IMG/VR virus record: IMGVR_UViG_2645728091_000011
Coordinates: 1 to 6,568 of that record
Source: a virus
Taxonomy: Duplodnaviria; Heunggongvirae; Uroviricota; Caudoviricetes
Reading direction: 5' to 3' (one strand)
Length of the DNA: 6,568 nucleotides
The position numbers are program-made. Shown piece after piece: positions 1 to 3,000 of this stretch (its first letter is position 1; the number at the start of each line of letters is the position of its first letter).

Positions 1-3000
1 AGTCATGTGGGATGGCTGGTTCAGACTTCAGGATATGGTTGAGGGTTACCTGGTGATGAAGTCTCTTGATCAGGAGATCTGATCAAGAGACAGCTGTGCG
101 GAGGGGCAATCAGCGAGTAGGTATATGGGATAATCGCGGATTCAGGTGCTGGTACTGAATTCACCGGGAGGCACCCGGCACCATGCAATGGCACATAGCG
201 CCACTCTCCAGCCCCTCTCCGGAGGGGCTTTCTTATGGACAAAAAAAGCCCGCGCAGGGAGACGCGGGCGGCAAGGAATAAACAACAAAACGTGAAGTAA
301 TATTTCAGCTGGCGAATAATATCCGACAGTAATCACTCTGCGCAATAGCGCGGCCTTTTTCGTATTGCGGGCTGTTGTCTCTCTTCTGCCATTGTCCTGT
401 AACCTCCGGACTTCAGCCCGCTCCTCATTTTACTCACAATATTATCCCGGCCGGGAGGATTCATGGCATTTAAACACTATGATGTTGTCAGGGCGGCGTC
501 GCCGTCAGACCTTGCGGAAAAGCTGACACACAAACTGAAAGAGGGCTGGCAGCCATATGGCGGACCGGTTGCCATTACGCCGTACACACTGATGCAGGCG
601 GTGGCTATTGAAGGAGATCCACAGGTCGGCCCTTCATCTGAGCCGGACTGGTTCTACGTGGTTGTGCTTGCCGGACAGTCCAACGGCATGGCCTACGGTG
701 AAGGGCTTCCGTTACCGGATTCTTACGATGCTCCGGATCCGCGCATTAAACAGCTGGCGCGCCGCAGCACGGTAACTCCGGGTGGAGAGAGTTGTACGTA
801 TAACGACATCATCCCGGCTGACCACTGTCTGCATGATGTGCAGGATATGAGTACGCTGAATCATCCGAAGGCAGACCTGAGCAAAGGGCAGTACGGCTGT
901 GTCGGCCAGGGCTTACATATTGCCAAAAAACTGCTCCCGTATATCCCGAATAACGCGGGGATCCTGCTGGTACCATGCTGTCGTGGTGGTTCGGCATTCA
1001 CCCAGGGCGCGGAGGGGACATTCAGTGCGGACGCGGGGGCCAGCCAGGATTCGGCGCGCTGGGGTGTGGGTAAACCGTTATATCAGGACCTGATTGCGCG
1101 CACTAAAGCTGCATTACAGAAGAACCCGAAAAATGTGTTGCTGGCGGTGTGCTGGATGCAGGGAGAGTTTGACATGAGCGCCGCCACCCACGCACAGCAA
1201 CCTGCGCTGTTTACAGCCATGCTGAAGCTGTTTCGTGCTGACCTCACTGTGTTTAACGCGCAGTGTCATGGTGGCAGTGCTGCAGATGTACCGTGGATTT
1301 GTGGTGACACGACGTATTACTGGAAAAATACATACGCTACCCAGTACGACACCGTGTACGGCGGGTATAAAAACAGGGAGAGTGAGGGCGTTTATTTTGT
1401 GCCCTTCATGACAGACGGTAACGGCGTCAATACCGCCACTAACGCGCCGGCAGAAGATCCGGATATTCCGGCATCAGGATATTACGGTGCGGCATCGAGA
1501 ACGAATGGAAACCAGGTATCATCAAACCGCCCGACACATTTCAGTTCATGGGCGCGCAGGAGCATTATTCCGGATCGTCTGGCAACCGCTATTCTGAACG
1601 CAGCCGGGCGCACCTCAGCCTTCATCAGTGGTAAGGCACCGGAAATCAAACCCTCGCCCGGCGGCAACACGCCATCGGGTCCGTCTGCAGATACGTCCGT
1701 TCGCACAATCTCCCTGCTGCCGGCAGCCGGAGAGGCTGCTGCGCAGGGCTGGAGCATTAAGGATGGCGGAATTCAGTTGTCAGATGGTGTATTTAAGATC
1801 ACCAAGCAGAGCAATAAAACCTGGTCCCTGACGCATCCGGTGGATGACGCAATTACCCTGCTGACACAGGGCGGCAGACTGACCTGTAAGTTCCGCCTGT
1901 CAGGCGCACTGACCAACAATCAGTTCGGGCTGGGGATTTATCTGTATACGGATGCTCCCGTTCCTGATGGTGTGGCGATGACGGGTACCGGTAATCCGTT
2001 CCTGATGTCGTACTTCACTCAGACCACTGACGGCAGAGTGAATCTGATGCATCACAGGAAAGCCGGAAACACGAAGCTGGGGGAGTTCGGCGATTACGGT
2101 AACGACTGGCAGACGCTGGAGCTGGTGTTCACCGCCGGCAGTGCCACGGTTACTCCGAAACTGAATGGAGTGGAAGGTTCGGCATTCCAGGCTATAAAAG
2201 ACAGTCTGACACTGGGACTGAATGCGCTGACGCTGACGGATATTACAAAAAATGCAGCGTATGGCGTTGAGATAGAAAGTCTGGTGCTGGAGATAAATGC
2301 ACCGGCAGCATAATAAAAAAGCCAGCGCCCACTCTGAAGGACGCTGGCTAAAACGGGTAGATGTACTTCACATGATACTTATATCTGGCAGTACATTTTC
2401 TGACAGACAGTGACGGATGTTGTCAAGATATTGTGTCATTTATAACCTGAATCAGGGGTTGGTCGGAATGTTATCTGGCATTTTTAGCAGAGCCTGAATG
2501 CCATAATCACGGCTCCCGGAGTTGGCCGTCAGTGGGTGACACTGGCGGTCTTTTTGTTTTCCTTTACTTTCATTTTCTGTCGGCGGTGACGGAGACATAC
2601 ATCAGATGGAAAAAATCACAACGGGTGTGTCATACACCACGTCAGCGGTGGGGACGGGATACTGGTTACTGCAGCTGCTGGACAAAGTCTCTCCGTCCCA
2701 GTGGGTGGCAATAGGTGTACTGGGGAGTCTGCTGTTTGGCCTGCTGACGTATCTGACTAACCTGTATTTCAAAATCAGGGAGGACCGCCGTAAGACGGCG
2801 CGGGGAGACTAAAGCGATGAAGAAAAAATACGAACTGGTTGTTAAAGAGATAAATAATTACCCGGATAAGATTGCTGTTACTGTGGCACTTGAAATTGGC
2901 GGGCATCCGTCGTTGTTGTTGCCACATGTGGCGATTAGTCTTGACCGTACTGAAGGTGCCACGCTGGAGTTCTACGAAGCTGAGGCGAAAAAACAGGCGA

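Follow-up and report, generated by a model that had tools for sequence, protein, structure and literature searches.

The 6,568-nucleotide (nt) stretch analysed here in full (hereafter the window; IMG/VR record IMGVR_UViG_2645728091_000011, positions 1–6,568) is the complete draft contig JHTG01000094.1 of assembly GCA_001266375.1. The open reading frame (ORF) at 463–2313 of the window is predicted to encode a 616-amino-acid (aa) prophage sialate 9-O-acetylesterase, an allele of NanS-p that belongs to a known class, in a lambdoid prophage's late region. At its left edge the contig falls within an insertion sequence (IS), ISEc13, and the prophage is likely not a Shiga toxin (Stx)-converting one. 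We assign a probability of roughly 0.87 to this explanation as a whole, which covers the NanS-p identity, the gene context, the IS junction and the likely presence of tRNA genes beyond the IS.

Identity and domain layout of the esterase

The gene and the domains of its product are as follows.

463–2313, plus strand: nanS-p, prophage sialate 9-O-acetylesterase, 616 aa (ATG start, GGAGG 7 nt upstream; Pfam and Protein Data Bank (PDB) matches)
469–609, plus strand: DUF1737 N-terminal domain, residues 3–49 (Pfam PF08410, E = 1.1e-15)
640–1599, plus strand: SGNH/SASA catalytic core homologous to NanS, residues 60–379, with Ser73 in GQSN and His359 in RPTH (PDB 3PT5, E = 1.5e-120)
1723–2310, plus strand: C-terminal lectin-like jelly-roll domain (DUF6645), residues 421–616 (PDB 6YP6, E = 1.8e-30; Pfam PF20350)

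The matches to DUF1737, SASA (PF03629, residues 66–262, E = 6e-12, 46.1 bits; cut-off 24.8) and DUF6645 (residues 467–576, E = 1.5e-18) all exceeded the Pfam gathering scores, and a linker rich in Pro, Ser and Gly (residues 380–420) precedes the C-terminal domain (CTD). A preliminary description of the window had read this ORF as a 616-aa SASA-type esterase with a DUF1737-like N-terminus, with which both the ORF and the Pfam domains agree. Sequence search of the PDB returned chromosomal NanS (YjhS, 3PT5) over residues 60–379 and a 218-residue NanS-p chain (6YP6) over residues 421–613 at the E-values listed above, and protein identity to known NanS-p alleles was 95.1–98.7%, which bears out the similarity to NanS-p that had been proposed. 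NanS-type SGNH esterases remove the 9-O-acetyl group from 5-N-acetyl-9-O-acetylneuraminic acid (Neu5,9Ac2). The core aligns with chromosomal NanS over 320 residues with identical Ser and His positions (approximately 62% identity, estimated by eye from the alignment), whereas NanS carries neither the DUF1737 N-terminus present in the window esterase nor the C-terminal lectin-like domain.

In an alignment with vb_24B_21 of the Stx phage phi24B (HM208303), the conserved blocks GQSN (residues 71–74, including Ser73), CCRGGS, WMQGE and HFSS (His359) were all kept. Block IV of the window esterase reads RPTH (RPT before HFSS at 359), a variant known from Stx2a prophage 86 (block definitions in PMC10462455). 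The homology, the domain layout, the catalytic motifs and the gene context were thus observed directly, and we assign the protein to NanS-p because it combines DUF1737, SASA and DUF6645, retains the catalytic Ser/His blocks and is encoded in the late region upstream of S-R-Rz. Other family collections were less informative: no NCBIfam family matched the esterase or a 325-aa ORF downstream of it (see below), and in PHROGs both matched only families of unknown function.

Relatives of the allele

The esterase showed 98.4–98.7% protein identity to the alleles of Escherichia coli strains 2014C-3061 and O145:H28 RM12581. Spacer and gene together (94–2313) were found at at least 99% identity in 388 complete-genome records, and window 94–6568 is 99.3% identical to a lambda-like non-Stx prophage of strain 2014C-3061. 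The same three-domain, 616-aa architecture upstream of a class II holin gene occurs in Stx1a phages and lambdoids (Stx1_499, YYZ-2008, H-19B and phage 434). The esterase of Stx1_499, encoded directly downstream of stx1AB, shows 95.1% protein identity (core 96.6%, CTD 96.9%), whereas its DUF1737 is just 85.5% identical; at the DNA level the esterase genes of phage 434 and Stx1 phage H-19B are 95.6% and 95.2% identical, respectively. The Stx1a phages differ from the window in having stx1AB upstream and in a spacer that diverges upstream of window base 338. The phi24B vb_24B_21/gp84 and 933W L0105 (z1466) proteins are more distant. They share DUF1737, SASA and a lectin-like CTD as well as the GQSN, CCRGGS, WMQGE and HFSS blocks, but they comprise 645 rather than 616 aa and are 56.9% identical overall (DUF1737 61.8%, core 70.8%, CTD 36.8%, the last being of a different CTD class).

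The central points are already known, namely the occurrence of nanS-p in non-Stx prophages (PMC10462455), the activity of its products and the published CTD fold. This allele class occurs in hundreds of E. coli genomes as well as in phage 434 and H-19B, and the gene itself has little discovery value.

Substrate and the C-terminal domain

All seven of the EDL933 alleles and all five alleles of a Stx-phage-cured O104:H4 strain are active esterases, and tested NanS-p alleles de-O-acetylate mucin glycans and permit growth on Neu5,9Ac2 (PMC8065619). By analogy with these, the window esterase would remove the 9-O-acetyl group from Neu5,9Ac2 and O-acetylated mucin glycans through its SGNH/SASA core, with Ser73 (GQSN) as the nucleophile together with His359 (RPTH block), after which E. 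coli would use the Neu5Ac. Alternatively, the esterase might target an O-acetylated bacterial surface polysaccharide (O-antigen) and thereby aid phage adsorption rather than act on host sialic acid, a possibility left open in a review (PMC8065619). A lectin-like CTD could bind bacterial glycans, and the CTD classes are strongly divergent (37% identity), as host-range determinants would be. Against this stand the approximately 62% identity (by eye) of the core to NanS, whose substrate is Neu5,9Ac2, and the cleavage of Neu5,9Ac2 and mucin O-acetyl groups by the tested NanS-p alleles (PMC8065619); we therefore regard an O-antigen substrate as highly improbable and retain sialic acid deacetylation as the preferred function.

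The preliminary description had also recognised a separate beta-rich domain at the C-terminus and had guessed at carbohydrate binding. The domain, which begins at GWSIKDGG, spans residues 429–616, so that its size is 188 aa and not approximately 220 aa as described; homology to the jelly-roll structure 6YP6 extends over residues 421–613. According to the summaries of the 2020 structure in PMC10462455 and PMC8065619, 6YP6 is the CTD of vb_24B_21 of phi24B, and the guess at carbohydrate binding agrees with the published structure of this 35–37% identical homologue. Three of the four aromatic residues proposed to form the sugar site are retained (F488, Y493 and F518). An AlphaFold2 model of residues 421–616, calculated from a shallow alignment of mostly close-relative fragments, was all-beta and of low confidence (pLDDT 52.9, pTM 0.56) and served as a consistency check only; in Foldseek its top PDB match was again 6YP6 (E = 5.5e-14, TM 0.59), followed by concanavalin A (ConA)-like lectin domains (Emp46p/47p, ERGIC-53, calreticulin and botulinum toxin Hc). 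The structure prediction that had been suggested as a check thus agreed with a beta-rich domain at that confidence. The CTD is a ConA-like jelly roll that would anchor the enzyme on its glycan substrate, by analogy with the crystallised domain. When the CTD was used as a tblastn query against phage records, two classes were distinguished: approximately 30 records at 95–99% identity, mostly Stx1a phages, and approximately 300 records at approximately 35%, corresponding to the 933W/phi24B class.

An ISEc13 end at the left edge of the contig

The preliminary description had overlooked the end of an IS at 1–93, which gives rise to the following features.

1–93, plus strand: 3′ (inside) end of ISEc13, IS4 family (95–97% DNA identity to the termini of ISEc13 copies in numerous E. 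coli genomes)
94–101, unstranded: 8-bp target copy of ISEc13, CTGTGCGG, in the first-hairpin loop of an STnc100-family small RNA (sRNA) gene

The assignment to ISEc13 rests on the 93 nt of the element inside the window: its terminal sequence (...CTGATCAAGAGACAG) stops at base 93, the inside end of its terminal inverted repeat (CTGTCTCTTGATCAGATC, reverse complement) lies at 76–93, and window 2–79 encodes the final 26 aa of the ISEc13 transposase at 100% identity. The first base with phage homology is 94, and 369 of the 462 nt upstream of the esterase gene are consequently of phage origin. The junction was observed directly. ISEc13 splits the first-hairpin loop of the STnc100-like gene (ATCCCCC/TGTGCGG/AGGGG), for which uninterrupted relatives have ATCCCCCTGTGCGGAGGGG; in prophage PP6 of E. 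coli E2348/69, CTGTGCGG borders ISEc13 on both sides. The junction expected on the other side of the window's IS is ...GGTGAATCCCCCTGTGCGG followed by the ISEc13 outside end, or ...GGCATGGTGAATCCCCCTGTGCGG and then the outside end CTGTCTCTTATACACA... The window's ISEc13 junction was found in none of the 5,426 complete E. coli genomes searched, and the insertion is the sole strain-specific feature of the locus. The right end of the contig falls within the Nu1 gene, a sequence repeated among prophages and a second assembly break; at either end the contig breaks off in a repeat, as is typical of assemblies.

The PP6 locus resembles the window in its spacer (99.5%), in a minus-strand sRNA candidate and in the ISEc13 target. 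There, ISEc13 occupies the identical target CTGTGCGG in reversed orientation, beside an esterase gene only 93.3% identical, and the packaging module is of the HNH/TerS type. The two insertions are independent, since the orientations are opposite, the esterases are 93.3% identical and the packaging modules differ. Inversion between IS copies was considered as the cause of the opposite orientation and rejected, because recombination within the IS leaves each end on its own flank and because the identity between the esterases is no more than 93%. ISEc13 is found a third time, between mog and satP, in ATCCCCC/CGAGCGG/GGGGAT, and all three targets (window 76–101; locus L003, 4460–4480 and 5994–6010; locus L004, 544 and 2076) are loops of C5/G4–5 hairpins with the loop consensus YGWGCGG. 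From these sequences, a target preference of ISEc13 for hairpin loops, or an insertion hot spot, is suggested.

The spacer upstream of the gene and the stx/tRNA question

The gene had been described as occupying the stx slot of a non-Stx prophage without any toxin or tRNA genes. Indeed, neither ARAGORN nor Rfam detected a tRNA gene in the whole window, and tblastn over the window with Stx1A/B and Stx2A/B gave no match better than E = 2, in agreement with the earlier observation that 1–462 holds no stx-like ORF or tRNA. The corresponding distances in phages and prophages with a known upstream region are as follows.

E. coli 2014C-3061 (non-Stx): tRNA-Arg to esterase start, 489 nt (locus L001, 11881–12369)
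Stx1_499: stx1B to esterase start, 499 nt (locus L005, 4278–4776)
Stx2a_F723: stx2B to esterase start, 486 nt (locus L006, 4207–4692)
Shigella phage 75/02 Stx: stx1B to esterase start, 476 nt (locus L007, 4379–4854)
Stx2_EC3283: stx2B to esterase start, 497 nt (locus L008, 4309–4805)

The 462 nt upstream of the gene in the window fall wholly inside a spacer that is common to Stx and non-Stx phages. Since this spacer (476–499 nt) is longer than the 462 nt present, the absence of stx and tRNA genes from 1–462 is uninformative: a contig cut off at this point in a true Stx phage would likewise show neither. The slot itself lies past the left edge of the window, in that stxB would end 476–499 nt upstream of the gene, and the gene is thus not located in it. 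The spacer appeared as a mosaic of sRNA-gene segments common to Stx and non-Stx phages, with the stxAB insertion point at its upstream edge.

All seven of the relatives that were opened and that are collinear with 94–462 at at least 99% identity (2014C-3061, E2348/69 PP6, Nil3, O145:H28 RM12581, O26:H11 FWSEC0001, O103:H2 12009 and pig isolate PE164) have tRNA-Ile/Arg/Arg upstream and no stx, the last tRNA-Arg ending approximately 120 nt before the equivalent of window base 94. Phage Nil3, which is 100% identical over 94–340, has Q, an annotated tR′ and three tRNAs. The prophage is likely non-Stx, because the closest relatives, seven out of seven, carry tRNAs and lack stx; by the same analogy, Q followed by tRNA-Ile/Arg/Arg, with no stx, most likely lies beyond the IS, and the absence of tRNA genes from the window is probably an artefact of the contig edge. 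The non-Stx part of the earlier claim is thus likely to stand by analogy, although the argument from absence on which it had been based fails within the common spacer. The part that denied tRNA genes is probably false: closure of the assembly gap would probably place tRNA genes upstream.

The opposite case, that stx1AB or stx2AB lies just past ISEc13 on another contig of the draft assembly, draws on the same geometry. The window stops within the spacer, and any stxB would end 476 nt or more before the esterase gene; window 94–187 recurs at 100% identity in a segment that starts 123 nt past stx1B in Shigella phage 75/02 Stx, and window 157–340 has a counterpart of 95.7% identity past stx2B in Stx2_EC3283. 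One paper locates STnc_100 75 nt beyond the stx2 operon, and its forward primer, CATGGTGAATCCCCCTGTGC, spans the site split here by the IS (PMC12370729). The esterase itself is 95% identical to Stx1a-phage alleles. Even so, none of the sampled phage and genome records joins the whole 94–462 spacer (at at least 99%) with stx, the seven collinear relatives all have tRNA-Ile/Arg/Arg at that place, the Stx1a phages diverge upstream of base 338, and the window matches a non-Stx prophage at 99.3%. An Stx-converting prophage is accordingly very unlikely, and a non-Stx prophage with tRNA genes beyond the IS is preferred. More generally, a contig that starts less than approximately 500 nt upstream of nanS-p cannot support an Stx-negative call, particularly where an assembly break has left its start in an IS, because the stxB and tRNA spacers are equal in length (476–499 nt) and contain common sRNA genes.

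Expression and release

In lambdoid phages, Q-modified polymerase passes terminators. The nanS-p gene, in the late region of the prophage, would be co-transcribed with the lysis and packaging genes from a Q-dependent late promoter after induction, and Q-modified polymerase would read past the sRNA terminators and possibly past a co-oriented IS. The increase in nanS-p expression by 1–2.4 logs upon mitomycin C treatment (PMC10462455) is consistent with Q-dependent late transcription. The esterase, which has DUF1737 rather than a signal peptide at its N-terminus, would then be released on lysis by the pinholin/SAR-endolysin/spanin cassette, a route proposed because no signal peptide stands in place of DUF1737.

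Under a different reading, the prophage is decaying and the esterase gene, though intact, is silent cargo that the IS has cut off from Q-dependent late transcription and that is of no effect in this strain. The approximately 1.4-kb ISEc13 between the expected Q/pR′/tRNA region and the gene, the finding of no sigma-70-like promoter on the plus strand of 1–462, and signs of lineage decay in the closest relative (frameshifted Rz and truncated YdfR gene) are compatible with such silencing. However, every lysis-cassette ORF in the window is intact, the esterase ORF is free of lesions and 98–99% identical to widespread alleles, and the transposase gene points the same way as the late operon; passage of terminators by Q-modified polymerase is established for lambdoid phages. 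Silencing therefore seems quite unlikely, and late expression of a functional NanS-p remains our preferred explanation.

Several points nevertheless count against that explanation. Expression may be lowered or uncoupled by the ISEc13, which separates the gene from its presumed late promoter, and the region beyond the IS in this strain lies outside the contig. The activity of this allele on Neu5,9Ac2 or O-acetylated mucin is a prediction from related alleles. As for the CTD, its structure model is of low confidence (pLDDT 52.9), the fourth proposed sugar-binding aromatic residue is Leu584 here (F611 in phi24B), and with 37% identity to the crystallised domain its specificity may differ.

DUF1737 and a possible role in the virion

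For phi24B gp84, cryo-electron microscopy and proteomics showed DUF1737 as a hexamer seated on the hexon in the middle of every T=9 facet and defined two processing sites, with the esterase and lectin domains cleaved off (bioRxiv 10.64898/2026.04.10.717836). The window protein might likewise be mainly a virion component, with a capsid-bound DUF1737 and an esterase/lectin part that is displayed and then cleaved, aiding sticking to or movement in mucus rather than feeding of the lysogen. Its DUF1737 is 61.8% identical to that of phi24B, the first 33 residues being nearly identical, the corresponding loop holds a Tyr (Y41), and Gly51 is aligned to phi24B Gly54. In contrast, the anchoring loop is shorter by 3 residues (TPYTLM versus TAGYGAEF) and the linker that follows DUF1737 by 11, and the SSP motifs put forward for cleavage are missing, only SSEP being found at 58. 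phi24B is a T=9 podovirus, whereas the window has lambda-type packaging genes; this DUF1737 variant occurs with lambda-type, HK97-like and HNH/TerS-type heads, none of them a T=9 podovirus, and by established capsid geometry a T=7 lambda-type capsid would offer no facet-centre hexon, the place where gp84 binds. Among the handful of loci compared, no simple one-to-one relation between DUF1737 type and head type was seen. On balance we consider a mainly virion-borne role unlikely, and capsid decoration by this allele equally or slightly more so; a NanS-p released on lysis is preferred.

A speculative extension, which we hold to be improbable, is that the short-loop DUF1737 also binds lambda- or HK97-type siphoviral capsids, that the esterase is a displayed, self-cleaving decoration targeting O-acetylated mucus, and that the flanking cis-antisense Hfq sRNAs (422→241 and PasC 2391→2315; described below) tune late expression. 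If true, the esterase would be a virion decoration steering particles to O-acetylated mucus and not solely metabolic cargo of the lysogen.

Small RNA genes flanking the esterase

The sRNA-related features of the window are the following.

94–240, plus strand: remnant of an STnc100-family (PasD-related) sRNA gene, promoter and first 15 nt lost to the IS
210–229, plus strand: intrinsic terminator hairpin of the STnc100-like RNA (terminator scan; terminal stem of the Rfam STnc100 model)
241–422, minus strand: homologue of a Hfq-associated sRNA candidate of E2348/69 PP6, EcOnc08/21/42 family (98.9% over 182 nt to NC_011601 1444797–1444978, minus strand)
2315–2391, minus strand: PasC-type Hfq-dependent sRNA gene, predicted (97.4% over 77/78 nt to E2348/69 PasC)

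The remnant gave an Rfam RF02076 match at 28–240 on the plus strand with 69.8 bits (gathering score 47), and the intact STnc100-like copy in 2014C-3061 (locus L001, 11957–12147) gave 138 bits. Judged from the related sRNA PasD2, which has the 5′ end GCATGGTGAATCC in common with the intact copy, the IS would lie 15 nt past the 5′ end. The G+C-rich hairpin at 210–229, followed by a T-rich tail and located 234 nt before the esterase ATG, had been described as tR′-like; the hairpin does exist, but its identity as the late terminator tR′ was rejected, as Rfam assigns it to the STnc100 terminal stem and the annotated tR′ lies between Q and the tRNAs in Nil3 and phi24B.

On the minus strand, the PP6 candidate was mapped by RIL-seq and is a homologue of EcOnc08/21/42 of enterohaemorrhagic E. 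coli (Table S6, PMC8550237). Its counterpart in the window has a terminator at 269→248 and a promoter-like site at 469→441, the latter overlapping the ribosome-binding site and start codon of the esterase gene. Any late transcript that extends into nanS-p would face an RNA running 422→241 in antisense to it. At the other end of the gene, the sequence of the PasC Northern probe was found exactly at 2342, the terminator of the PasC-type gene (2349→2320) adjoins the esterase stop codon, and the 30-nt PasA target site determined by RIL-seq in the 3′ end of the esterase mRNA is present verbatim at 2272–2301 on the plus strand. PasC of E2348/69 is a Northern-validated, Hfq-dependent sRNA (PMC8550237), and the order sRNA gene, esterase gene, sRNA gene and holin/lysozyme genes has been described (bioRxiv 10.64898/2026.05.13.724894).

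Other sRNA candidates were rejected. The PasD2 probe had no match in the window and BLAST gave none for PasD2, only the first 13 nt of which are common to the intact STnc100-like gene; the PasA probe likewise had no match, and its BLAST similarity arose only via likeness to PasC. Weak Rfam matches (rimP leader, anti-hemB, OmrA-B, SgrS and others) fell far short of the gathering scores, and we took them for chance hits or matches to terminators.

Genes downstream of the esterase

Downstream of the esterase the window contains the lysis genes and the start of a packaging gene.

2606–2812, plus strand: class II (S21-type) holin (Pfam PF04971, E = 1.4e-32)
2817–3794, plus strand: DUF1327/YdfR-family protein, 325 aa (Pfam PF07041 over residues 1–100 only; phrog_1085)
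3850–4383, plus strand: endolysin, phage lysozyme (Pfam PF00959, E = 2.6e-24), with the hydrophobic SAR-like N-terminus GLSAAVLALIAAGAPA
4682–5149, plus strand: Rz spanin, with an embedded Rz1 at 4902–5087 (PF03245, E = 2.2e-47; PF06085, E = 4.4e-20)
6348–6566, plus strand: 5′ part of lambda-type small terminase, Nu1 (PF07471 match of the called gene, which is cut short by the contig end)

In the listed order, a DUF3950 gene on the minus strand stands between Rz/Rz1 and Nu1. The remaining approximately 225 aa of the 325-aa ORF match only PHROGs of unknown function, and in 2014C-3061 a truncated pseudogene (locus L001, 14729–15064) was found in place of this ORF. The class II holin together with an endolysin bearing a hydrophobic N-terminus corresponds to the pinholin/SAR-endolysin pattern.

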